A DNA stretch of 64,000 bases from an uncultured Actinomycetes bacterium (GCA_963717845.1 CAVQXH010000001.1:1825865-1889864); one strand, 5' to 3'; shown: positions 31,109 through 51,248, numbered from the stretch's first letter. A program made the numbers and translations. Notes: a model not told the origin generated them from the sequence alone.

Positions 31109-31171
31109 ACCCGATCCTACCGGCGTCGATCGCCTCTATACGAGCCGGAATTGCTGCGCTACGTTGAGAGC

Positions 31172-32057
31172 GTGCGGTCGCCCCGCCTGCTGATCCTCGT
31201 CCTGGCGCTGACCACCGCATGTGGCCAGGCCGGGGCCACGAACCCGGCCACGCCGCCCGCCTCGACCCGATCCGGCGGCCCGCATGCGCGGGTCGCGCTC
31301 GCCGGCTTCGCCGCCCGCACGGCCCGCGCCGGAAGCGCGCGCGTGGCGATGCACATGACGATGAGCGGCGTGCCCAGCGCGGGCACGATCGAGGTCGATG
31401 CGACCGGCGTCGTCGCGTTCCGCAGCCGGGCCGGGTCGATGCAGCTGCGCATGACCTCGCCGGCCACCGGCTCCGTCCTGCGCATCCGCGAGATCACGCT
31501 CTGGCCGGTCGTGTACATGCGCTCGCCGCTGTTTGCGAGCGAGCCCCACAGCAAGGGGCCGTGGGTGAAGCTCGACCTCGCCCGGATCGAGCGCCGCCAC
31601 GGCGTCGACGTGAACGCGCTCGCCACCACGGGCGGCAACGATCCCGGCGAGATGCTCTCGACGCTTGCCGGCGAGTCGGACTCGATCGCGACCGTCGGCC
31701 ACGCGCTCGTGCGCGGCGTCACGCACCACCCACTACCGGGCGGTCATCGACCTCTCGAAGGTGGCGGCGTCGGCGCCGCCGGCCCTGCGGGCGGCCGCGC
31801 GCCGCTCGGAGGCGCACCTGGAGGCCATGCTCGGCAAGCATCTGATGCCGATGGACGTGTGGATCGGCGGGGACGGCCTCGTGCGCCGCGTCGCCTACCG
31901 CACGTCCGTGCCGATCGCCGGCGCGACGGGAACGCTGACGACGTCGGTGCGGCTCGAGCTGTTCGGGTTCGGCGTGCCCGTGCACGTGACCGCGCCGCCG
32001 GCATCCCGCACGACCGATCTCACCGCTGCTGTCGCGGCGGGCGCCGGCTCGGGATAG
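31172..32057 (+). pseudogene. lipoprotein of unknown function, one +1 frame break at ~31725
   Basis: GTG at 31172. Lipobox: LLILVLALTTACGQ. ORF 30164..32071 joins ORF 31665..32057 at ..VRGVTH/THYRAVIDLSKVAASAPPAL. The same GCTACGTTGAG-N3-start layout is seen at marR. Confidence 0.65.
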
Positions 32058-33050: not shown

Positions 33051-33645
33051 ATGCTCGTGCTGATCCACGGCCGCGGGGCCGACGAGCACGACCTCTACCC
33101 GCTCGCCGACGCGCTGGATCCGGGCGGGCGGCTGGTGGCGGAGCTGCCGCGCGGGCCGCTGCGCCTGCCCCCGGGCGGCGCCCACTGGTACGTCGTCTAC
33201 GAGATCGGCCGTCCCGATCCCGACACGTTCCTGCCCACGTTCGCAGCGCTCGGCGAGTGGCTGGATGCGACCGCCGCGGCCCACGGGCTCGCCCCCGACC
33301 GCGTGGTGATCGCCGGGTTCTCGCAGGGGGCCGTGATGTCCTACGCGCTCGGCCTCGGCGCCGGGCCGGCCCCGTCCTGCGGGGATCATCGCGCTCTCCG
33401 GATTCATCCCCGCGGTGCCGGGCTTCGAGCTCGATCTGGCCGGCCGGGCCGGCCTGCCGGTGGCCATCGGGCACGGCGCGCTCGACCCGGTGATCGGCGT
33501 CGAGTTCGGGCGCAGCGCCCGGGCGCTCCTGGAGGAAGGCGGGCTCGCCGTCCGCTACCAGGAGTCGCCGATGCCGCACAGCATCGACCCGGCGTTCCTG
33601 CACGAGCTGCGCGGCTGGGTCGCCGGGGTCATCCCGGGGCGCTGA
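33051..33645 (+). pseudogene. phospholipase/carboxylesterase-family alpha/beta hydrolase, +1 frame break at ~33365
   Basis: LVLIHGRGADEHDL..VVIAGFSQGAVMSYALGLGAG joins RPRPAGIIALSGFIPAVPGFELD..AIGHGALDPVI..MPHSIDP (ORF 33415..33645). The start is uncertain: ATG 33051, or CTG 33000. Confidence 0.7.
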
Positions 33646-34170: not shown

Positions 34171-36489
34171 GTGAGCCGCAGCCTCGACACCTACCGCCGC
34201 AAGCGTGACCCCGCAAAGACGCCGGAGCCCTTCTCCGGCGACGGCGGCGGGGGGAACGAGCCGATCTTCGTGGTCCAGCGCCACGACGCCCGCCGGCTGC
34301 ACTTCGACTTCCGCATCGAGCGCGGCGGCGCCCTGCAGAGCTGGGCCGTGCCCAAGGGCATCCCGCTGCGCAAGGGCCAGCGCCACCTGGCGGTGCACGT
34401 CGAGGACCATCCGCTCGACTATGCGACGTTCGAGGGCGAGATCCCGGCCGGTGAGTACGGCGCCGGGACGGTCGAGATCTGGGACCGCGGCCACTACGAG
34501 CTCGTCGAGGAGAAGCGCGACGGCGGCCTGACCGTGCGCCTGCGCGGCGAGCGCCTGAACGGCCTGTGGACGCTCGTGCCGACGCACATCGACGGCAACG
34601 AGCGCAACTGGCTCATGATCCGCAAGGACGAGGGTGAGGGCGGCGCGGGAGCCGAGGCCGCCGGCCTGCGGCCCATGCTGGCGGTGGCGGCGTCCGAGCT
34701 GCCCACCACCGGGAACGACTGGGTGTACGAGATCAAGTGGGACGGCTATCGCGTGCTCGCCGCGGTCGACGGCGGCGACGTGACGCTGCGCAGCCGCAAC
34801 GGCAACGATCTGACCGGGCGCTTCGGGCAGGTGGCCGGGGCGCTGCCGGCCGCGCTGCGTAGCTCCGACTGCGTGCTCGACGGCGAGGTGTGTGCGCTCG
34901 ACGAGGACGGCCGCCCCCGCTTCTCGCTGCTCCAGCACGGCGGCGGCGCGCTCGCCATGTACGTCTTCGACCTGCTGCGGCTCGACGGCCGCGACGTCAC
35001 CGGCCTGCCGCTCCACGAGCGCCGCGACCTGCTCCAGGAAACGCTCATCCCCGGCGACGTGATCCGGCTCTCGGTCGCGTTCGCAGACGGGCCGGCGCTG
35101 CTCGAGCAGTCGCGGCAGCTGGGGCTCGAGGGCGTGCTCGCCAAGCGCGGCTCGAGCCGCTACCTGCCCGGGAAGCGCACCGAGTCGTGGCTGAAGATCA
35201 AGTCGGTGCAGCGCCAGGAGCTGATCATCGCCGGCTACACCCGTGGCCAGGGCCGCCGCGGGGGCGCGTTCGGCGCGCTCGTGCTCGCCATCGAGCGCGG
35301 GGGCGAGCTGGTGTGGGCGGGCAACTGCGGCACCGGCTTCGACGACGCCGAGCTCGACTTCCTGGTGGAAAAGCTCGAGCCGTTGCGGCGCAAGACGTCC
35401 CCGCTCGCCGTCACGCCGAAGATGGCGAAGGTGCGCGCGGCCGACGTGACCTGGGTGCAGCCGGAGCTCGTCTGCGAGGTCGAGTTCCTCGAGTGGACGC
35501 GCGACGGCCGGCTGCGGGCACCCTCGTACAAGGGCCTGCGCGACGACAAGGAGGCGAAGGACGTGCATCGCGAGCATCCCCGGACGGAGACGTCCGCCAT
35601 CCCGGGCCGTGACCTGAAGCTCGGCAACCTCGACAAGGTGTTCTGGCCGGACGAGGGCATCACGAAGGGCGACCTGATCGACTACTACCGGGCCGTGGCC
35701 GACGTTGTCGTGCCGCTGTTGCGCGACCGCCCGTTCACGATGAAGCGGTACCCCGACGGCATCGCGGCCAAGCCGTTCTTCCAGAAGAACGCGCCGTCGC
35801 ACATGCCCGACTGGATCCCGACGGCGGAGTTCTCCGCCACGTCGCGCGAGGACCGCTCGAAGCGGATGATCAACTACCCGCTCGTGAACGAGGAGGCGGC
35901 GCTCCTGTGGATGGCGAACATGGGCTGCATCGACCTGAACGCCTGGCTGTCGCGGGCCGACAAGGCCGACCGGCCCGACTTCGCCCTCTTCGACCTCGAC
36001 CCGACGCCGGAGGCGGGGTTCGCCGCCGCCGCGGAGGTTGCGCTGCTCGTGCGCGACGCCCTGGCAGCCGTCGACCTGCGCGGGTATCCCAAGACGAGCG
36101 GGGCCGACGGCGTCCACGTGCTCGTTCCGCTCGCCCGCCGCTACGGCTACGACCAGACCCGCGGGCTCGTGCTCGCGATCACGCGGGCGCTCGCGTCGAT
36201 GCGGCCCGACCTCGTGACGACCGAGTGGTCGAAGGCGAAGCGCCACGGCGTCCTCATCGACGCGAACCAGAACGGCCCGGGCCGGACGATCGCCTTCGCC
36301 TATTCCGTGCGCCCGCACCCGGGCGCGCCGGTGTCGGCGCCGCTCACGTGGGACGAGCTCGCGGCGGGTGTGGAGCCCGGGGATTTCACCATGACCGCCA
36401 TGCTCGACCGGCTCTCCCGGCTGGGCGACCTGCACGCGCCCGTGCTCGAGGACCACCAGGCGCTCGGCCCCGCGCTGCGCTCGCTCTGA
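34171..36489 (+). CDS. ligD: ATP-dependent DNA ligase LigD (3'-phosphoesterase + ligase + polymerase/primase domains)
   Basis: PE domain: FVVQRHDARRLHFDFRIE..WAVPKG..HVEDHPLDY. Ligase domain: YEIKWDGYR (KxDG) and WLKIK. Pol domain: FWPDEGITKGDLIDYY..GCIDLN..FDLDP..KTSGADGVHV. Single intact 772-aa ORF. Confidence 0.93.
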   Translation: MSRSLDTYRRKRDPAKTPEPFSGDGGGGNEPIFVVQRHDARRLHFDFRIERGGALQSWAVPKGIPLRKGQRHLAVHVEDHPLDYATFEGEIPAGEYGAGTVEIWDRGHYELVEEKRDGGLTVRLRGERLNGLWTLVPTHIDGNERNWLMIRKDEGEGGAGAEAAGLRPMLAVAASELPTTGNDWVYEIKWDGYRVLAAVDGGDVTLRSRNGNDLTGRFGQVAGALPAALRSSDCVLDGEVCALDEDGRPRFSLLQHGGGALAMYVFDLLRLDGRDVTGLPLHERRDLLQETLIPGDVIRLSVAFADGPALLEQSRQLGLEGVLAKRGSSRYLPGKRTESWLKIKSVQRQELIIAGYTRGQGRRGGAFGALVLAIERGGELVWAGNCGTGFDDAELDFLVEKLEPLRRKTSPLAVTPKMAKVRAADVTWVQPELVCEVEFLEWTRDGRLRAPSYKGLRDDKEAKDVHREHPRTETSAIPGRDLKLGNLDKVFWPDEGITKGDLIDYYRAVADVVVPLLRDRPFTMKRYPDGIAAKPFFQKNAPSHMPDWIPTAEFSATSREDRSKRMINYPLVNEEAALLWMANMGCIDLNAWLSRADKADRPDFALFDLDPTPEAGFAAAAEVALLVRDALAAVDLRGYPKTSGADGVHVLVPLARRYGYDQTRGLVLAITRALASMRPDLVTTEWSKAKRHGVLIDANQNGPGRTIAFAYSVRPHPGAPVSAPLTWDELAAGVEPGDFTMTAMLDRLSRLGDLHAPVLEDHQALGPALRSL

Positions 36490-36586
36490 GCGGGCGGCGC
36501 GAGTTTCCCGCAATCTGCGAACATACGTTCGCGTTCGAGGTGAGATCCGGCGGTGGCCGCGCGCGTTCCTGTGCCAGACTGCAGGC

Positions 36587-39500
36587 ATGGTGGTGACCGA
36601 GGGAGAGCGCCGCGTCGTGGCCGTGCTGATGGCCGACGTCGCCGGGTCGACGACGATCGGGGAGCAGCTCGGTCCCGAGCGGTCGAAATTCCTGTTCGAC
36701 GAGGTCGTGCGGCTCATGGCCGAGCAGATCGAGCGCTACGAGGGCACGGTCGCCCAGCTGCTCGGAGACGGCCTCCTGGCCGTGTTCGGCGCACCGGTGG
36801 CGCACGAGGACGACAGCGAGCGGGCGGTGCGGGCCGGGCTTGCGATCCAGCGCGCCCTCGCTGCCTACTCCCGCGAGGTGAACGAGGCCTACGGCATCGA
36901 GCTGAAGGCGCGGGTGGCGGTGAACACCGGCCCGGTGCTGATCACGCCGGACGCCGCCGGCGCCGATCGCTGGAACGCGCTCGGCGACACGGTCAACGTC
37001 ACCGCCCGCCTGCAGGCGCTCGCCGGCGAGGCCGACGTGACGCTCGGCCCGGGCACCGCGGCGCAGGTGCGCGACTGCTTCGAGCTCGAGGAGCTGGGGC
37101 CGACCGAGCTGCGCGGGCGCAGCCGCCCGGTCGACCGCTTCCGGGTCGTCGAGCGAGCGCGATCGCCACTCGCGGCCGGCCGACGGGCCGCTGCTCGGGC
37201 GCGATGCGGAGCTTGCGAGCGTGCGCGGCGCGCTCGAGCGGACGGCCGAGGGCATCGGCGTCATCGTGTCCGTGACGGGGGAGCCGGGCATCGGCAAGTC
37301 GCGGCTCGTGGCCGACGCCGTGGAGCCGCTGCGCGATCGCGTGCGCCTGCTGGTCGGCCGCAGCCTGTCCTACACCCAGGGATTCTCGTACTGGCCGATC
37401 CGCGATCTCCTGCGCGACTGGCTCGGGGTGTCTGCGACCGCCAGCGAGGCGCGGGTGCGGTTCGACCTCAAGGCCGCACTGCACGAGCTGTACGGCGCCG
37501 GCGGCGACGAGCTCTATCCGTTTCTGGCCAACCTGCTCGGGCTGCTCGAGAGCGACCGGCGGGCTGCGGCCGACCTGCGCGAGCTCTCGCGCGACTCGCT
37601 GCACCGGCGCAGCCTCGAGGTCGTGGCCGGGCTGCTGCAGCGGCTCGCGGACGACCGGCCGCTGCTCGTCGTCTTCGAGGACCTGCACTGGGCCGACGAG
37701 CTCACCCTGCAGGCGGTCGAGAGCCTCTTCGAGCTGACCGAGACCGAGTCGCTCGGAATCGTCATGCTCTACCGCAGCGAGCGCGAGCTGCCGTCGTGGG
37801 GGATGGGCGAGCGCGCCCGGCAGCACTACCCTCACCGTTACGTAGAGGTTGAGCTTCGTGCGCTCAGCGGCGATGTCACACAGGCGCTCGCCCAGGCGCT
37901 CGCCGACGCGCCGCTGCCCGCGGCCGTCGCCGACCTGATCGCCCAGCGAGCGGGCGGAAACCCGCTGTTCGTGAGCGAGGCGCTGCGCGACCTGGTCGAG
38001 CGCGGCGCGCTGCGGCGGTCAAACGGCGGCTGGGAGCTGGCCGTGGAGCCCGGCCAGCTCGAGGTGCCCGCGCTCGTGCAGGGGGTGCTGCAGGCCCGCC
38101 TCGACCGGCTCGATCCCGTCGCCCGCGAGGTGGTCGCCGTGGCGGCGGTGATCGGCCGCCGCTTCGGCATGCCGCTGCTCGAGCGCGTCCTGGATCCCGA
38201 CACGCTGCCCGGGGCGCTCACGGAGCTGCAGCGGCTCGACCTGATCGTCGAGGAGCGCCGCCGTCCCTTCCCCGAATACCGGTTCCGGCACGGGCTCGTC
38301 CAGGAGGCGGCCTATGCAGGGCTGACGGAGAGCGACAGAAGGACGCTGCACGGCCGGGTCGGCCGGGCGCTCGAAGAGCTCGTGGGCGACGAGAAGAGCT
38401 CCGCCACGCTCGTGCTGCTGGCCCGGCACTTCAGCGCGGCCGACGACCCTGCGAAGGCGGCGGAATACCTGATCCGGGCCGGCGATGAGGCCCGGTCGAT
38501 CTACGCCGACCAGGAGGCCATCCGCCACTACCGGCAGGCGCGCGAGTTCCTCGGCCGGCTCGGCGACGATCGCCGCTCGCGCGAGACCCTGTTCAAGATC
38601 GCGCTCGTCCACCACCTGGCGTTCAACTTCGGCGAGGCCGAGCGGGCCTATGACGAGGCGTTCGCCTGCAAGGTGCAGCCGTTCGAGCAGCCCGAGCCCA
38701 CCGAGCGGATCGTGACCGCGCTGCTGCGCCCGAACGCCCTCGCCCCGGGCCTGGAGTACATCGCCGAGACGAGCGCGCTCACAGCCCACCTGTTTCGCGG
38801 CCTCCTGATCATCGACCGCGATCTGAACGTGATGCCGTCGCTCGCGGAGAACTTCCGGGTGTCCGGCGACGGGCTCACCTACCTGTTCCAGCTGCGCGAG
38901 AGCGCGTGCTGGAGCGACGGCCGGCCCGTGACGGCGCACGACTTCGTCTACACGTGGGAGCGGGCCCGGCAGCGCTCGACGGTGACGGCGTTTCTGCTCG
39001 AGGACGTCGAGCAGGCGACGGCGCTCGACGACCACACGCTCGAGGTGGTGCTGCGCGAGCCGCGCAACTACTTCCCCTACATCCTGGCGTCGACGTATGC
39101 CTACCCGTGGCCGCGCCACCTGTGCGAGTCGCTGGGCGACGAGTGGCACCGCCAGCAGCCGCTCGTCTCGAGCGGGCCGTTCCTGCTCTCCGACATGGGC
39201 GAGGACAGCATGACCCTCGTCGCGAACCCGCGCTGGAGCGGCCGGCGCGGCAACCTGCGCGAGATCGAGGTCAGCTTCCGTGTCCACGGCAACCTGGTGG
39301 ACGAGCTGTGGCGCTCGGGGCAGGTGGACGTGCTCGCAAGCCCCTACTCGTCGGACGAGTGGGACGACTCGTGCACCGAGTTCGCGGCGTCGCTGGGGAC
39401 GACGATGATCGGCTTTCGCACCGATCACGCCCCGTTCTCCGACCTGCGGCTGCGCCAGGCCGTGGCGGCCGTGCTCTCACCGGTCGGCGCGGCGTACGCC

Positions 39501-40142
39501 GACGTCGGGCTCGTCAGCCGGCCCGCGACCGGCGGCGGCCTGCTGCCCCCGGCGATGCCGGGGCATGACCACCACGTCGCCGAGCTCACCGGCGTCGCCG
39601 GGGCCCGGGCGCTGCTCGCCGCCGCCGGTCATCCCGGCGGGGAGGGGCTGGGGCCGCTGCAGATGGTGATCGCAAGCGGCCTCGAGCTGCTGGAGGAGCC
39701 GATCCGCGCGGCGCTTGCCGAGGTCGGCCTGGGCGTCGAGTTCGCGATCAGCCCGCGGGCCGATCGCATCGCCGACAAGCCGTCCGACCTGTGGATGACC
39801 ACGTGGCTGGCCGACTACCCCGACCCGGAGGGGTTCTTCCGCGGCCTGCTCACCGATCCCTACGATCCGCTCGTCGACGAGAGCATGACGCGGGAGGTGG
39901 TCGAGCTGCTCGACCAGGCGCGGGCGTCGAGGGACCAGGACGAGCGGCTGGCGCTGTACGGGCGCGTCGACCGGCTGCTCGTCGCGGAGTGGGTCGCGGT
40001 CGTCCCGCTGGCCTACTCGCGCACCGCGCTCTTGCGGCGGCCGTGGGTGCACGGCCTGTGGGCGAACGCGCTCACGTCGTTTCGCCTGGACGGCGTCATG
40101 GTCGAGCGGGAGCCCGCGCAGCCGCCGGACGCCGCAGGGTGA
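36587..40142 (+). pseudogene. multidomain signalling protein: class III adenylate/guanylate cyclase - AAA_16/STAND P-loop NTPase - TPR-like helices - family-5 solute-binding (SBP_bac_5) domain; one +1 frame break at ~37170
   Basis: Cyclase: VVAVLMADVAGST..LLGDGLLAVFGAP..ALGDTVNVTARL. P-loop: VTGEPGIGKSRL. Walker B: LLVVFEDLHWAD. SBP5-like from ~38697: LVRxD-type IIDRDLNVMPSLAENFRVSGDGLTYLFQLRESACWSDGRPVTAHDFVYTWER. ORF 36587..37852 and ORF 37221..40142 join in ..RFRVVERARSPLA / RPADGPLLGRDAELASVRGALE. No signal peptide or lipobox is present. Confidence 0.8.
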
Positions 40143-41104
40143 GCGCCGCAGACGGGCCGCGCGCCTCGGCGCGCGCGCCGGCGGTTGCCGCGCGCCCTCC
40201 CGCGTTCGAGCTTGCCGCCGCCTTCGCGTCGATCTACCTGGTGTGGGGGTCGACGTTCCTGGCGATCCGCTACGCGGTCGAGACGATCCCGCCGTTCGCG
40301 ATGATGGCCGTGCGCTGCCTGCTCGGCGGCGGCATCCTGCTCGCCATCGCGCTCGTCCGCGAGCGCGGCGTCGTCTGGCCCACCAGGCGGGAGTGGGGCG
40401 GAGCGCTGGTGCTCGGCGGGTTCCTGTTCGTCGGCTGTCACGGCGTGCTCGCCTACGCCGAGGAGCGCGTGCCGTCGGGCATCGCCGCCCTGTGCCTGGC
40501 GACGATCCCCCTGTTCGTGCCGCTGCTGGCGTGGTCGCTGCCGGGCGGCTCGCCGCCGTCGCGGCGGCGCGCGGCCGCGCTCGTGGCCGGATTCGCCGGC
40601 GTGGCGCTGCTGGTGGCGGCGCAGGGAACCGGCGGCGGCCTGCACCCCGCCGATGCGCTGCTCCTGCTCGGAAGCGCGCTCTCGTGGGCCGCGGGGACGG
40701 TGGCGACCCGGGTCGTGCCCGTGCCGCGGTCGCCGACGATGGGCGCGGCCATGCCGCTGCTCGCCGGCGGCTGCGTCCTGACCGTGATCGCGCTCGCGTC
40801 GGGCGAGCTCTCGAGCGGCCGGATCGACCACGTGTCGGGACGCTCCCTGGGCGGTCTGGCCTATCTGATCGTGTTCGGCACGGTGGTCACGTTCTCGGCC
40901 TACGTCTGGCTGCTGCGCCAGGTCGCGCCCGCCCGCGTGGCCACCTACGCATTCGTGAATCCCGTGGTGGCGGTCGTGCTGGGCTGGGCGCTCGCGGGCG
41001 AGTCCCTGACCGTCGGCGCTGTGGTCGCAAGCGCCGTGATCGTGCTGGCCGTCGCCGTCGCGGTGTCCGAGCGCGAGCCGGCACCGGTCGGCGCGCCGAG
41101 CTGA
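40139..41104 (+). CDS. EamA/DMT-family transporter (10 TMS)
   Basis: The GTG at 40139 overlaps the stop of the upstream gene (GTGA). IYLVWGSTFLAIRYAV and a second EamA repeat (LGSALSWAAGTV..FVNPVVAVVLGW) are present. Confidence 0.85.
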   Translation: MSAADGPRASARAPAVAARPPAFELAAAFASIYLVWGSTFLAIRYAVETIPPFAMMAVRCLLGGGILLAIALVRERGVVWPTRREWGGALVLGGFLFVGCHGVLAYAEERVPSGIAALCLATIPLFVPLLAWSLPGGSPPSRRRAAALVAGFAGVALLVAAQGTGGGLHPADALLLLGSALSWAAGTVATRVVPVPRSPTMGAAMPLLAGGCVLTVIALASGELSSGRIDHVSGRSLGGLAYLIVFGTVVTFSAYVWLLRQVAPARVATYAFVNPVVAVVLGWALAGESLTVGAVVASAVIVLAVAVAVSEREPAPVGAPS

Positions 41105-41131: not shown

Positions 41132-41163
41132 TTGACACCGACACACTCGCGATATATCATGAT
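41132..41163 (+). promoter_or_regulatory. near-consensus sigma-70-type promoter (TTGACA-17nt-TATCAT) with an overlapping ATCATGAT palindrome upstream of padR
   Basis: TTGACA at 41132-37, a 17-nt spacer, TATCAT at 41155-60. The palindrome ATCATGAT is at 41156-63, and the CGCGATA direct repeat flanks it. AGGAGG at 41193-98 precedes the ATG at 41204. Confidence 0.6.
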
Positions 41164-41203: not shown

Positions 41204-41848
41204 ATGACATACGCAGAATCGATCCCGATGGGCGGACAGGGCCGACGCGGCCGCCGCTGCCATCGGGGCATGTTGATGTTCGCCGGCAAGCGCCGGCACG
41301 GCCGTGATCCCTTCGGGTTCGGCGGCTGGGGGCCGGGCCGGGGCGGGCCCGCAGCGTTCTTCGGCGGTGGCCGCCGGGCCGGCCGGGGCGACATCCGCGC
41401 CGCCATCCTGGCGCTCCTCGCCGAGCAGGAGATGCACGGCTACCAGATCATCCGCGAGCTCAGCGAGCGCACCGGTGGTGCCTGGCAGCCGAGCCCCGGA
41501 TCGGTCTACCCGACCTTGCAGCAGCTCGAGGACGAGGAGCTCGTCACCGAGCAGAAGTCCGACACCGGCCGGCGCGTGTACGAGCTGACCGAGGCCGGGC
41601 GCGAGCGGGCGGCGGCGCTGCCGTCGCCGGCCCCCTGGGAGCAGGCCGCCGCCGAGGCCCAGGACGAGCACGCCGACCTGCGCGGCCTGGTGTTCCAGGT
41701 GCTCGGGGCGGTGCGTCAGGTCGCCGGAGCGGGCACGCCCGCGCAGATCGAGGCGGCTTCCGAGGTGCTGCGCTCCGCGCGGCGCAGCCTGTACCAGATC
41801 CTGGCCGAGGACGAGGCTCCCGGCGAGGAGCCCGGCACCACGGTCTAG
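41204..41848 (+). CDS. PadR family transcriptional regulator with an Arg/Gly-rich N-terminal extension
   Basis: DIRAAILALLAEQEMHGYQIIRELSERTGGAWQPSPGSVYPTLQQLEDEELVTEQK..GRRVYELTEAGR is a canonical PadR wHTH, preceded by about 60 aa of RG/FG-rich sequence. Confidence 0.9.
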   Translation: MTYAESIPMGGQGRRGRRCHRGMLMFAGKRRHGRDPFGFGGWGPGRGGPAAFFGGGRRAGRGDIRAAILALLAEQEMHGYQIIRELSERTGGAWQPSPGSVYPTLQQLEDEELVTEQKSDTGRRVYELTEAGRERAAALPSPAPWEQAAAEAQDEHADLRGLVFQVLGAVRQVAGAGTPAQIEAASEVLRSARRSLYQILAEDEAPGEEPGTTV

Positions 41849-42812: not shown

Positions 42813-44828
42813 TCAGGCGGACGCCGCCCGGCGCAGCGGCACGACGTTTCCGACCGAGTGCTGCTCTGTCCCGGGCAGCGCGACCAGGGGAGTCAGGCCC
42901 GCGGCGCCGCCCGGCGTGGGCCGGCCGAGCAGGTAGCCCTGACCCGAGCTCGCGCCGAGGCTCGTGATCGTGTGCAGCTCGGCAGGCGTCTCGATGCCTT
43001 CCGCGCAGATGAGCGCCTGCGCGCTGTCGGCGAAGAACACGAACGCCCGGACGACGGCGGCCTTGAGCGGATCCGTGTCGACGCCGGCGACGAGCGAGCG
43101 GTCGAGCTTGATCACGTCCGGGCGCATCCGCACCAGCTGGGCGAACCCGGCGTAGCCGGCGCCGGCGTCGTCGACCGCGATCCGCGCCCCCCGGGCGCGC
43201 AGCTCGTGCAGCGCATGCTCGAGCTCGGGGCCCTCGGTGACCAGGGCATCCTCGGTCACCTCGATCGTGATCGCCGAGAGATCGTCGGGCAGGCCGATCC
43301 GGTTGCGGGCGCTGAGCAGCACCTTCGGGCTGATGTTGAGGTTGATGGACGGAACGGCCGGACGGTCGGGCGCGTCGAGCGCCGCCCGCACCGCGGCCGC
43401 CTCGAGCTCGATGGCGAGGTCGTGGGCATGGGCGAGCTCGAACCACTCCTGCGGGTTTCGCCAGTCGGCCTCGGGAAAGCGTGACAGCGCCTCGTGCCCC
43501 AGCACCTCGCCCGTCTGGAGATCGACGATCGGCTGGAACACCGGCGTGATCGCGGTCGGGTTGTCGATGATGGCGAGCAGCTCGGCCCGCTCGGCCTCGG
43601 CGTTGCTGGGCGCGTTCTCGAGCGCGCGGCTGTAGCTGCGCGTGCCGGACCGCGTCGGCTTGCCCGCGATGAGGGCCATGTCGGCGCGGCGCAGGAGCTC
43701 GTCGGCCGTCATGCCGGGCGAGGCGCTGGCGATCCCGATCGTGGCCGTGATGATCGCCCCGCGGCCGGCGCGCAGCGCCGCGTGCACGGCGTCGGCGATC
43801 CGCTCGGCGCGCTGGTTGCGTCCCGCCGCGATGATCGCGAACTCGTCGCCGCCGATGCGGTAGGGCACCGCGTCGATGCCCTCGCAGGCGGTGGTGAGCG
43901 CGGCCGCGAGCTGGCAGATGCGCTCGTCGCCGACCTGATGGCCGAGGCCGTCGTTGACCGCCTTCAGGCCGTCCATGTCGACGAGCAGCGCATGCAGGCC
44001 GCTGTCGCCTGCGAGCGAGCGGCGGATGTCCTCTTGGAAGCAGCGGTGGTTGCGCAGGCCCGTGAGGCTGTCGCGCAGGGCCGCGTCGCGCAGGTGCCCG
44101 ATCTCGCGCCGGTTCGCCTCGGCCAGGCGCCGGCGCAGGCGCAGCATCCGCACCACCGTCCACGAGATCGTCAGGCAGAGGATGCCGGTGATCACGACCA
44201 CGATGCTGGCGCGGCGATCGGTCGTCTGCGAGCTCGCGAGGCTCGCGTTCGCCTCGCGCTGGTGGCCGGCGACCTGGCGATCGGCAATCCGCAGCATGCT
44301 GCCGAGCAGCGGGCGCACGACCGTCGAGTCGACGGCACCCACGCCCTGCGCGTTCAGGTTCGCAGCCATCGTGGTCACGCGGTCGACGCCGATCGCGAGC
44401 CGGCGGCCGTCGCGGTTGAGCGCCGCGATCGCGCGCCGCTCGGCGCTGGGCGCCTCGGAGTCGCGGCCGGAGACCGACGCGGTGAGCTGCGCCAGGGCGA
44501 TGTCGACCGAGCCCGTTGAGCGCGTCAGCACGCTGCCGTTGTTCGGGACGGGGTTGATGACGTATGCGTGCTCGGCCAGCTCGAGCCGCTCGATGGCGTC
44601 GCGCGCGCGGGTGTAGGCGCCTGCGGCGACCGAGGCCGTCCGCACGCGCTCGCTCGCCCGGCTTGTCGTCGAGATGGTGAACCACGAGAGCGCCGTCAGC
44701 CCCGCCATCGCCACGACCGTGGCCACCAGGACCGCAGCGGACCAGCCCGCTTCGCGCAGGAAGTGGAGCCGCTGGGTGGGGCTGTTCTGTGCCGTTCCGC
44801 CGGCCGGCGCGGTGGCGTTCTGGAGCAC
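42813..44828 (-). CDS. membrane-bound GGDEF-EAL protein (diguanylate cyclase/phosphodiesterase) with a periplasmic sensor loop
   Basis: Two TM segments flank a ~170-aa loop. RDSLTGLRN..VDMDGLKAVND..YRIGGDEFAI (GGDEF). FQPIVDL..GHEALSR (EAL)..DDAGAGY..IKLDRSLV..CAEGIET. Confidence 0.9.
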   Translation of the reverse strand: MLQNATAPAGGTAQNSPTQRLHFLREAGWSAAVLVATVVAMAGLTALSWFTISTTSRASERVRTASVAAGAYTRARDAIERLELAEHAYVINPVPNNGSVLTRSTGSVDIALAQLTASVSGRDSEAPSAERRAIAALNRDGRRLAIGVDRVTTMAANLNAQGVGAVDSTVVRPLLGSMLRIADRQVAGHQREANASLASSQTTDRRASIVVVITGILCLTISWTVVRMLRLRRRLAEANRREIGHLRDAALRDSLTGLRNHRCFQEDIRRSLAGDSGLHALLVDMDGLKAVNDGLGHQVGDERICQLAAALTTACEGIDAVPYRIGGDEFAIIAAGRNQRAERIADAVHAALRAGRGAIITATIGIASASPGMTADELLRRADMALIAGKPTRSGTRSYSRALENAPSNAEAERAELLAIIDNPTAITPVFQPIVDLQTGEVLGHEALSRFPEADWRNPQEWFELAHAHDLAIELEAAAVRAALDAPDRPAVPSINLNISPKVLLSARNRIGLPDDLSAITIEVTEDALVTEGPELEHALHELRARGARIAVDDAGAGYAGFAQLVRMRPDVIKLDRSLVAGVDTDPLKAAVVRAFVFFADSAQALICAEGIETPAELHTITSLGASSGQGYLLGRPTPGGAAGLTPLVALPGTEQHSVGNVVPLRRAASA

Positions 44829-49866: not shown

Positions 49867-50817
49867 GTGGAGCAGATGCCGATCGGACCGCTCGAGGTGT
49901 CCCGCGTGGGCCTCGGCTGCAACAACTTCGGCGGCCGGCTCGACCTGGCCCGCACGCGCGCGGTCGTGGATGCCGCCCTCGACGCCGGCATCACCTTCCT
50001 CGACACGGCCGACATCTACGGCAACCGCTCCGGGCCGGCCGTGTACGACCGGCACGGTGCGAGCGAGGCGATGCTGGGCGAGGTGCTGCACGGCCGTCGC
50101 GACCGCGTCGTCCTGGCGACCAAGTTCGGTGGGGACATGGGCGACGCCGCCCCGGCCCGAGGCGCACCCGAGTACGTGCGGCGCGCGCTTGACCGCTCGC
50201 TCGAGCGCCTGCGCACCGACCACGTCGACCTGCTGTACTACCACTGGCCGGACGACGTGACGCCGATCGCCGAGACGGTCGCCGCCATGGCCGATCTGGT
50301 GCAGGCCGGGAAGATGCGGGCGATCGGCGTCTCCAACCTGACGCTCGCCCAGCTCGACGAGGCGGCGCGCGCGGGCCCGATCGCTGCGCTCCAGAACGAG
50401 TACTCACTGCTCGAGCGCGCGGCCGAGCGCGAGCTCCTGCCGCGCTGCCGCGAGCTCGGGGTGGCGTTCGTGCCCTACTACCCGCTCGCATCCGGCCTGC
50501 TCACCGGGAAGTACCGCCACGGCCGGCCGCCTCCCGCCGGCTCGCGCTGGGACGGTGGGGAGGCCATGACCGACGGCACCTGGGTCAGCCCGGGCGTCGA
50601 GGCTTCGCAGGCGGCGTTCGCCCTCGTCGACCGCCTGGCGGCATACGCCGGCGAGCGCGGTCACAGTCTGCTCGAGCTGGCCATCGCCGGGCTTGCGTCG
50701 CGGCCGGGTGTGGCCTCGGTGATCGCGGGCGCGACGACCCCCGAGCAGGTGCGGGCAAACGCCGCCGCCGGCGATTGGGTGCTGACGCCGGAGGAGCTGC
50801 GGGCGATTCCGGCCTAG
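49867..50817 (+). CDS. aldo/keto reductase
   Basis: GLGCNNFGGRLD..GITFLDTADIYGN..DLLYYHWPD..IGVSNLT..ALQNEYSLLER..PYYPLASGLLTGKY. Confidence 0.9.
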   Translation: MEQMPIGPLEVSRVGLGCNNFGGRLDLARTRAVVDAALDAGITFLDTADIYGNRSGPAVYDRHGASEAMLGEVLHGRRDRVVLATKFGGDMGDAAPARGAPEYVRRALDRSLERLRTDHVDLLYYHWPDDVTPIAETVAAMADLVQAGKMRAIGVSNLTLAQLDEAARAGPIAALQNEYSLLERAAERELLPRCRELGVAFVPYYPLASGLLTGKYRHGRPPPAGSRWDGGEAMTDGTWVSPGVEASQAAFALVDRLAAYAGERGHSLLELAIAGLASRPGVASVIAGATTPEQVRANAAAGDWVLTPEELRAIPA

Positions 50818-51248
50818 GCGCTGGCGGAGCGCTCCGACGCTCGCAGCCGCTCGGCCAGCGTGCGCATGAGCTCGAGCGCGATCTTCGGCTCGGCCGTGAC
50901 CACCTTCAGGAACGCCGAGCGTCCGAGCAGCATCGCGAGCACCTCGGTCTGCGCCTCGACCGTGGCGGTACGCGGAGCGCCGTCGAGCAGCGCCATCTCG
51001 CCGAACGAGTCTCCGGCCTTCAGCCGCACCGAGCGCTTGCCCGGCGGCTTGACGAGCGCCTCGCCGTCGAGGATGACGTAGAAGTTGTCCGCGCGCTCGC
51101 CCGCGCGCACGATCGGGGTGTAGCGCGCGTACCGGCGGGTCTTGGCCAGGGCGGCGATCTGGTTCAGGTGGCGCTTGGAGAGGCCGGCGAACAGGGGGAT
51201 CTGGCCAAGCACATCGGCCCACCCGCGGCCCATCGCATCCGACGGCAT
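50814..51248 (-). CDS. stand-alone cyclic-nucleotide-binding domain protein
   Basis: 144 aa from MPSDAMGRGW (caggag RBS). IPLFAGLSKRHLNQIA..GERADNFYVILDGEA..GDSFGEMALLDGAPRTATVEA (FGE..RTA signature). No DNA-binding domain is present. Confidence 0.85.
   Translation of the reverse strand: MPSDAMGRGWADVLGQIPLFAGLSKRHLNQIAALAKTRRYARYTPIVRAGERADNFYVILDGEALVKPPGKRSVRLKAGDSFGEMALLDGAPRTATVEAQTEVLAMLLGRSAFLKVVTAEPKIALELMRTLAERLRASERSASA

Follow-up and report, generated by a model that had tools for sequence, protein, structure and literature searches.

A predicted cytoplasmic STAND cyclase with a family-5 solute-binding domain as its candidate sensor in an uncultured Actinomycetes bacterium

The mycobacterial proteins Rv0386, Rv1358 and Rv2488c combine an N-terminal class III nucleotidyl cyclase, a P-loop ATPase of the STAND class (signal transduction ATPases with numerous domains) and helical repeats, and end in a LuxR-type helix-turn-helix (HTH) DNA-binding domain. 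Rv0386-type STAND cyclases were described two decades ago, and we know of no activating input for them. Here we analyzed a gene in a 64,000-nucleotide stretch of DNA from an uncultured Actinomycetes bacterium (GCA_963717845.1, CAVQXH010000001.1:1825865-1889864; hereafter the window, with positions counted from its first letter). By description, the encoded protein resembles the mycobacterial cyclases in its first three parts, and it ends in a domain of ~490 residues related to family-5 solute-binding proteins (SBP5) where they carry the LuxR domain. This contrast had been drawn in an earlier note made from the window's sequence alone (the original prediction), and it was upheld. Because SBP5 replaces LuxR, the protein would have one output, the cyclase, plus a candidate ligand sensor, rather than two outputs. 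We consider it probable that the locus encodes a cytoplasmic one-component receptor of ~1,184 residues, probably intact, in which a MalT/AAA_16-type STAND cyclase bears a complete OppA/DppE-like SBP5 domain as its C-terminal sensor.

Several other described systems share parts of this design. MalT of E. coli has the same AAA_16-type nucleotide-binding oligomerization domain (NOD), arm and helical sensor region, and in MalT maltotriose and ATP drive an oligomerization that activates the effector. In MalT, sensing takes place in the superhelical repeat domain and the effector is a LuxR HTH at the C-terminus, whereas the protein described here has an enzyme as its N-terminal effector and carries a Venus-flytrap SBP5 domain after the repeats. 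The TOMM kinase/cyclase fusion (TIGR03903) shares the core of cyclase, AAA_16 and helical repeats, with an N-terminal kinase that is missing here and without SBP5. The receptors OppA, MppA, DppA and DppE have the fold of the C-terminal domain (TM-score up to 0.84), 19-24% identity to it and the Asp of its WxADY motif; unlike them, the domain studied here has no signal peptide or lipobox and no adjacent ABC genes, and is covalently joined to a signaling protein. A cytoplasmic SBP5 sensor has precedent in SgrR and DsvR, HTH regulators that use a C-terminal cytoplasmic SBP_bac_5 domain as sensor (PMC13060122). As in these one-component regulators, an SBP5 domain without an export signal would act as intracellular input. 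SgrR differs in that its N-terminal HTH is fused directly to SBP5, with neither STAND ATPase nor cyclase, and a Pfam search found no SgrR-type or other HTH domain in the protein described here. Proteins of this architecture can already be seen in databases and in automated annotation. In the full-text literature we found no functional description of a cyclase-STAND-SBP5 protein or of SBP5 as the sensor of a STAND protein, in agreement with the original prediction.

Domain architecture, reading frame and location

The window has a G+C content of ~72%, and the gene is read in two frames in it. Frame A starts at the ATG at 36587 and codes to 37150 on the + strand, and frame B runs without a stop from 37041 as far as the TGA at 40140-40142. 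After removal of one base, G37151, the repaired protein comprises 1,184 residues with all domains in a single frame (Table 1). The gene features named in the original prediction are present essentially where it had placed them, far beyond chance. Its four-part fusion was recovered, with Guanylate_cyc above and AAA_16 and SBP_bac_5 far above their Pfam cut-offs and the tetratricopeptide repeat (TPR) part seen as a sub-threshold TPR_12 match and six predicted helices; SBP5, said to begin at ~38697, starts at about nt 38676-38700.

The cyclase domain matched Pfam Guanylate_cyc (PF00211) over residues 9-180 (E=1.6e-16, 60.9 bits against a cut-off of 21.9), and its best solved relatives were Cya2 (2w01, 2.6e-19) and CyaB (3r5g, 1.4e-14). 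Asp17 and Asp61, which bind the metal, and the transition-state residues Asn137 and Arg141 align to the Cya2 and CyaB motifs. Among 24 homologues D17, D61, N130, N137 and R141 were invariant and Q57 was at least 90% conserved. The cyclase is predicted to be catalytically complete. Class III cyclase catalysis needs dimers, and a single chain that holds every catalytic residue implies an enzyme that would be homodimeric. The substrate-defining pair is Gln57/Asn130. At the position of Gln57, CyaB has Lys and Cya2 has Glu, and at that of Asn130 CyaB has Thr; the canonical adenine-specifying Lys/Asp (or Lys/Thr) pair is not present in the domain. Rv0386 likewise has Gln/Asn instead of Lys/Asp. Castro et al. 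in 2005 reportedly tied the Gln/Asn pair of the mycobacterial enzyme to adenylyl cyclase activity accompanied by a guanylyl side activity. The Gln/Asn peculiarity of the mycobacterial STAND cyclase Rv0386 is restated in a more recent preprint (bioRxiv 10.1101/2024.03.06.583649). By analogy, the product here is probably cAMP, perhaps with some cGMP given the same pair.

The STAND module matched AAA_16 far above the cut-off (E=1.9e-23), and its Walker A (GEPGIGKS, Lys237) and Walker B (VVFEDLHWAD, Asp365) motifs were both invariant among homologues. An AlphaFold model of residues 189-696 had a mean predicted local distance difference test (pLDDT) score of 89.3. The best Foldseek matches of this NOD model were the archaeal STAND-TPR protein 6mfv, CED-4, Apaf-1, Avs3 and MalT (8bob), with E values of 6e-9 to 2e-7 and TM-scores that were low (0.3-0.44) because of the inter-domain pose; plant NLRs were also among the best matches. 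The NOD is followed by a helical/winged-helix arm and then by repeats, the order that characterizes STAND proteins. For the repeats, Pfam TPR_12 scored 27.7 bits against a cut-off of 30.1 (3.1e-06), the model contained six stacked helices at repaired residues ~581-693 (model residues 393-505), and several homologues carry a precomputed PF13424 annotation. The NCBIfam model TOMM_kin_cyc (TIGR03903) matched in part, over model positions 480-934, with 216.8 bits against a cut-off of 705.75.

No signal peptide, lipobox or transmembrane stretch was found in the repaired protein, the first two in agreement with the original prediction. Export of the SBP5 domain through Tat or Sec was considered and rejected: the sole 'RR + hydrophobic' stretch, ERRVVAVLMADVAGST at the N-terminus, forms the first cyclase strand with the metal-binding Asp and is not a Tat signal. 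Since an export signal is absent and two ATP/GTP-using domains precede SBP5, the protein must, on this prediction, be cytoplasmic.

Table 1. Coordinates of the features described, in the numbering of the window
Feature	Position	Strand	Repaired residues or basis
Class III nucleotidyl cyclase domain	36587..37150	+	repaired residues 1-188; Pfam Guanylate_cyc
Extra G, +1 frameshift	37151	+	DNA alignment against L001, L002, L003
STAND module (AAA_16 P-loop NTPase + helical/winged-helix arm)	37152..38327	+	repaired residues ~189-580
TPR-like helical repeats, STAND-to-SBP5 link	38328..38675	+	repaired residues ~581-696
Complete family-5 (cluster C) solute-binding domain + stop	38676..40142	+	repaired residues 697-1184
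Fast-evolving, possibly mosaic SBP5 segment	39270..40020	+	~residues 896-1145; identity/dN windows
EamA/DMT-family transporter gene, GTG start	40139..41104	+	Pfam EamA

The repair of the reading frame rests on comparison with the orthologous contigs L001 (87% identity), L002 and L003 (81%). The frame break had been placed at ~37170; it is real in the window sequence and lies ~20 nt further upstream, where DNA alignment located a single extra G (gtcgtcGagcgag in the window against gtcgtc-agcgag in the three intact orthologues). The tblastn match of close homologues changed frame at the same place, between residues 188 and 189. The earlier guess that the break should be repaired was upheld by more than 120 homologue clusters of 1167-1205 residues that carry PF00211, PF13191 and PF00496 in one frame. 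We then compared all genes of an 18-kb syntenic stretch (17 genes) with two related contigs, which revealed two more single-base insertions in the window relative to both: one at ~31722 breaks a 301-residue gene to which no function was assigned (31151-32024), and one at ~33362 breaks an Abhydrolase_2 gene (33057-33642). Frame-breaking +1 insertions thereby hit 3 of 17 compared genes within 18 kb, which suggests that the window derives from an indel-prone assembly. The protein on either side of the break is ~96% identical to that of L001 with a dN/dS (omega) of ~0.1 and for this reason shows no sign of decay.

A genuine frameshift would leave a split gene or pseudogene in this strain. One product would then consist of 188 residues of cyclase domain and an out-of-frame tail of 233 residues to 37852, and a separate STAND-SBP5 protein could begin at the GTG at 37221. 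The extra G is present in the given sequence and lies in no homopolymer run, a 973-residue open reading frame with a GTG start does exist downstream, and other assemblies hold truncated gene calls of the family (P0025, P0029, P0070). The two insertions that break unrelated neighbors, each intact in two orthologues, and the conserved flanks speak against it, and we regard a genuine split as improbable. Because three single-base insertions fall within 18 kb and the orthologues are intact, the break is very probably an error of the assembly consensus rather than a sign that three genes decayed independently. In this lineage, the gene almost certainly encodes the repaired protein. A programmed frameshift at 37151 was rejected, as the orthologues stay in frame at this site.

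The SBP5 domain and its STAND-linked relatives

The C-terminal domain gave a significant match to Pfam SBP_bac_5 (PF00496; 2e-51, 175.7 bits against a cut-off of 32.4), which agrees with its earlier reading as a family-5 solute-binding protein. By sequence it was closest to OppA, MppA and DppE, with a match to OppA (1b05) of E=6.3e-31 over OppA residues 34-498. NCBIfam models of OppA, MppA-like proteins, SapA, NikA, DppA and GsiB matched in part, and the SgrR model matched very weakly (18.6 bits against a cut-off of 476). An AlphaFold model (pLDDT 91.6) showed the full two-lobed fold. The model superposed on DppA and NikA, the structural comparison that had been proposed for it, and on unliganded DppE (8azb) with a TM-score of 0.84, and it had further Foldseek matches to YliB/GsiB, OppA and MppA among 170 PDB matches at E<=1e-3. 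Its WLADYPDP motif aligns with WCADYNEP of OppA, such that Asp1076 is equivalent to OppA Asp419, which holds the alpha-amino group of the bound peptide. The Asp of this WxADYPDP motif was invariant in 59 family sequences; OppA Arg413 is not kept and is replaced by Met. The resemblance to OppA, DppE and MppA together with the conserved Asp favors a ligand that is peptide-like or amine-bearing. No ABC permease or ATPase genes lay beside the SBP5-fusion gene in ten gene contexts, and the domain is presumed to be a cytoplasmic ligand sensor rather than the receptor of a transporter.

The survey of homologues established that the cyclase-AAA_16-SBP5 architecture is widely conserved: all of the more than 120 clusters, at 53-87% identity, carried the three domains. 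Those with names came from metagenome-assembled genomes of Gaiellales or Gaiellaceae. In GTDB representatives the full architecture occurred in other Thermoleophilia/Actinomycetota and in Chloroflexota (Anaerolineaceae L008, Anaerolineales L010, Caldilineae L014), and most remaining matches were common cyclase-AAA_16-TPR proteins ending at around residue 650-700. Taken together, the searches indicate an architecture that is widespread in soil Actinomycetota and Chloroflexota. Homologues are annotated as 'ABC transporter substrate-binding protein' or 'substrate-binding protein/class 3 adenylate cyclase'. The former name, public for P0001-P0120 and driven by the C-terminal domain, is misleading for cytoplasmic cyclase-STAND proteins of ~1,180 residues and exposes a systematic mis-annotation of signaling proteins as transporter components. 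We also observed that L004 encodes a second, different STAND cyclase (L004:17615-19561; Guanylate_cyc-NACHT-TPR, at least 817 residues) ~6 kb from its cyclase-AAA_16-SBP5 gene, which hints that STAND cyclases expanded in these genomes.

We next searched the SBP5 domain alone against 1.84 billion representatives, which yielded 542 clusters (50% identity) at E<1e-30, and classified the best 150 of the 542 with purpose-made domain hidden Markov models. These best 150 comprised 18 cyclase-NOD-arm-SBP5 proteins, about 23 with BTAD-NOD-arm-SBP5, about 12 with a Ser/Thr kinase, 14 with NOD-arm-SBP5 and about 39 N-terminally truncated arm/TPR-SBP5 proteins, the remainder being mostly fragments. An NTPase module stood upstream of SBP5 in at least 71 of them. 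Classical secreted solute-binding proteins were rejected as the nearest relatives of this SBP5 domain, as a secretion (lipoprotein) signal was found in only one of the best 150 clusters (P0175). The domain appears from these comparisons to belong to a STAND-specific clade. Pfam confirmed the architectures Guanylate_cyc-AAA_16-SBP5, Zn-ribbon-cyclase-AAA_16-SBP5, BTAD-AAA_16-SBP5, BTAD-Pkinase-AAA_16-TPR-SBP5 and Pkinase-AAA_16-TPR-SBP5, the last in Chloroflexia (L037:3197-7462) and Ca. Aquidulcis (L017:3110-6982). Kinase, BTAD or BTAD plus kinase effectors on AAA_16-TPR-SBP5 were found in Chloroflexota and other metagenomic lineages (P0170, P0182, P0171, P0165), a range of effectors that the original prediction had missed. 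Some relatives had two to four tandem SBP5 domains (P0121, P0127, P0193), among them a BTAD-AAA_16 protein of 2,843 residues with four (Pfam-confirmed), and a protein of 2,704 residues had four SBP5 domains and no further Pfam match.

The SBP5 domain also contains the fastest-changing stretch of the protein. Nucleotide identity between the window and L001 was 0.90-0.96 in most 150-nt windows from the upstream LigD gene to about 39120, fell to 0.67-0.77 between ~39270 and 40020 and was again at least 0.90 over most of EamA. Rates were compared in ten pairs among five orthologues. In nine of the ten, residues 896-1145 had a dN of 0.24-0.34 against 0.08-0.10 for the rest (~3-fold) and an omega of 0.33-0.60 against ~0.2; all parts of the protein were under purifying selection (omega 0.07-0.6). 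In the pair of the window and L001 dS was also higher in residues 896-1145, which suggests recombination. The divergence hotspot could stem from recombination or from diversification of the sensor.

These rates bear on a different role for SBP5, as a structural, autoinhibitory or protein-binding module for partner docking or oligomerization, with the signal entering elsewhere, for example through the TPRs. Fast evolution of ~residues 896-1145 (omega up to 0.6) would suit such a role, as would the fact that TPRs are the usual STAND sensors and that two to four tandem SBP5 domains, as in P0121 and P0127, are not what one would usually see in a simple switch driven by a ligand. Both lobes of the fold are nevertheless kept in full at high confidence, the OppA-type anchoring Asp and its WxADYPDP motif are invariant, and SgrR-type regulators do use a cytoplasmic SBP5 as sensor module. 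We therefore judge a non-sensory SBP5 to be unlikely, if the least unlikely of the alternatives considered here.

A ligand-sensing SBP5 would also fit the wider family. Because AAA_16-TPR-SBP5 is constant across the clade and the N-terminal effector varies, the distribution has the pattern expected of a shared input. We tentatively propose, as a plausible generalization in which we place less confidence than in the reading of the single locus, that TPR-SBP5 is a general cytoplasmic ligand sensor of MalT-type STAND ATPases in Actinomycetota and Chloroflexota, with at least three kinds of output (class III cyclase, Ser/Thr kinase and BTAD/SARP transcription activator), and that the part of the sensor that evolves quickly may diversify ligand specificity. 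If true, these proteins would form an unrecognized class of one-component receptors through which peptides or metabolites inside the cell act on cAMP, phosphorylation and transcription.

Proposed activation and its alternatives

Based on MalT, Apaf-1 and the Avs proteins, and on the dimer requirement of class III enzymes, we propose the following mechanism. At rest, the sensor and TPR arm would hold the ADP-bound NTPase module closed. A small cytoplasmic ligand, probably peptide-like or with a free amine, would enter the SBP5 cleft, and its binding would free the lock and allow ATP exchange and oligomerization. Oligomerization would gather the N-terminal cyclase domains into class III homodimers, and the result would be a burst of cAMP, possibly with some cGMP. 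Ligand gating, ligand class, product and oligomerization are all inferred from these analogues.

Several points weigh against the receptor as we describe it. Throughout this architecture, ligand gating is an inference. The ligand class is read from a single conserved Asp and from generic resemblance to cluster C, and the top 50 fold matches, which bind peptides, Ni, sialic acid, opines or EDTA, score nearly alike, for which reason assignment of the ligand by fold ranking was rejected. Owing to the variant Gln/Asn pair, the sequence does not distinguish between cAMP, cGMP and another product. No conserved neighbor in the ten gene contexts points to a pathway, and the extra G at 37151 lies outside any homopolymer. 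Finally, the cyclase domain weakly resembles Pycsar cyclases, with PycC matches (7e-12, 43 bits) that fall below the Guanylate_cyc score.

This last resemblance raises an Avs/Pycsar-like antiphage STAND system, in which a variable sensor would recognize a phage product and the cyclase would make an immune signal. Fast evolution in the sensor half and the presence of Avs3 among the fold matches are in keeping with such a system, as are the weak PycC matches themselves, although these are exceeded by the Pfam Guanylate_cyc score. In the sister architectures the effectors are regulatory (BTAD, Ser/Thr kinase) rather than toxic, no adjacent effector gene with a cyclic nucleotide monophosphate (cNMP) receptor is present, and the gene context is housekeeping. 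The STAND-SBP5 part had no PADLOC match, on which ground this candidate was rejected, and we view it as very improbable.

A ligand-gated STAND cyclase, which we favor, would be an unusually tractable one. SBP5 proteins crystallize well, bind their ligands tightly and suit thermal-shift screening, and an SBP5 input makes the ligand chemistry of a STAND cyclase accessible to such approaches. If SBP5 does gate the ATPase and cyclase, the protein offers a route to a defined ligand for a bacterial STAND protein besides MalT and a test of class III activation by oligomerization. It would also give access to the signals that govern SARP-type regulation, kinases and cAMP in soil lineages that are abundant and have received little study (Gaiellales, Anaerolineae). 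The wider pattern, in which SBP5 would serve as an exchangeable STAND sensor, deserves experimental work and is well suited to it.

EamA and the gene neighborhood

The stop codon of the cyclase gene overlaps the GTG start of the following gene in the sequence GTGA at 40139-40142, an overlap reported in the original prediction and confirmed on reading the sequence. The downstream protein belongs to the EamA/DMT family, with two EamA repeats (PF00892, E=4.8e-36), and is YedA-like (213.2 bits, below the equivalog cut-off of 270). The gene order LigD-cyclase-EamA-PadR and the 4-nt overlap were kept in L001, L002 and L003. L086 (80% identity) shows the same synteny, with EamA following the cyclase gene; its EamA call is truncated to 169 residues (L086:7997-8506). 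In P0156, the SBP5 C-terminus seems to be joined to an EamA-like membrane segment. More artefacts of frameshift probably account for these odd gene calls in P0156 and L086.

A near-consensus sigma-70-like promoter (TTGACA-17-TATCAT, 11 of 12 positions) was found at 41132-41160, between EamA and the PadR-family gene (41204-41845), where ~0.1 such sites would be expected by chance in the region. The same scan found no site upstream of the cyclase gene. As the promoter-like site comes only after EamA, cyclase and EamA are consistent here with a two-gene unit. A terminator scan returned two terminator-like matches, both inside coding sequence and at chance level.

Beyond this synteny block, the pairing was lost. 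EamA was not found beside homologues of 79%, 63%, 63%, 62% and 54% identity, where the genes downstream of the cyclase gene were instead a cupin and an amidase (79%), a GMC oxidoreductase (63%), APH (63%), a convergent HAD gene (62%) and a convergent PanK gene (54%). In tblastn searches, the EamA protein of the window had no match in any of 80 loci from GTDB genomes. EamA as a family-wide partner was ruled out by the ten gene contexts together with its tblastn search against 85 loci. Of the module of ligand transport and ligand-gated cyclase that had been suggested for this locus, the conserved overlap in L001, L002 and L003 stands; its extension to the family does not, and EamA would be at most a lineage-specific accessory.

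A special case of our best explanation is that SBP5 senses a cytoplasmic metabolite moved by EamA as an exporter, with cAMP reporting or regulating the flux. The conserved GTGA overlap and the strong promoter-like site placed only after EamA, before PadR, would suit such a two-gene unit. The pairing follows one synteny block and not the protein family, EamA being absent beside the five more distant homologues and from the 80 GTDB loci, and flux sensing of this kind seems to us rather unlikely, somewhat more so than a genuine split of the gene.

Two other signaling genes lie nearby on the minus strand, both of them noted before: one encodes a cNMP_binding protein (50817-51248, 1.7e-17) and the other a GGDEF-EAL protein (42816-44828). 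Their proximity is weak evidence of a connection, such genes being common. Directly upstream of the cyclase gene, at 34171-36489 on the + strand, lies a gene for a full-length LigD-type ATP-dependent DNA ligase/primase-polymerase of 772 residues that is syntenic in L001, L002 and L086. In L001, LigD and the cyclase gene are separated by two additional genes (L001:8107-9889), encoding an ECF-type sigma factor and a 407-residue protein without a Pfam match; this pair is missing from the window (36490-36586) and from L002 and amounts to an indel of ~1.8 kb.

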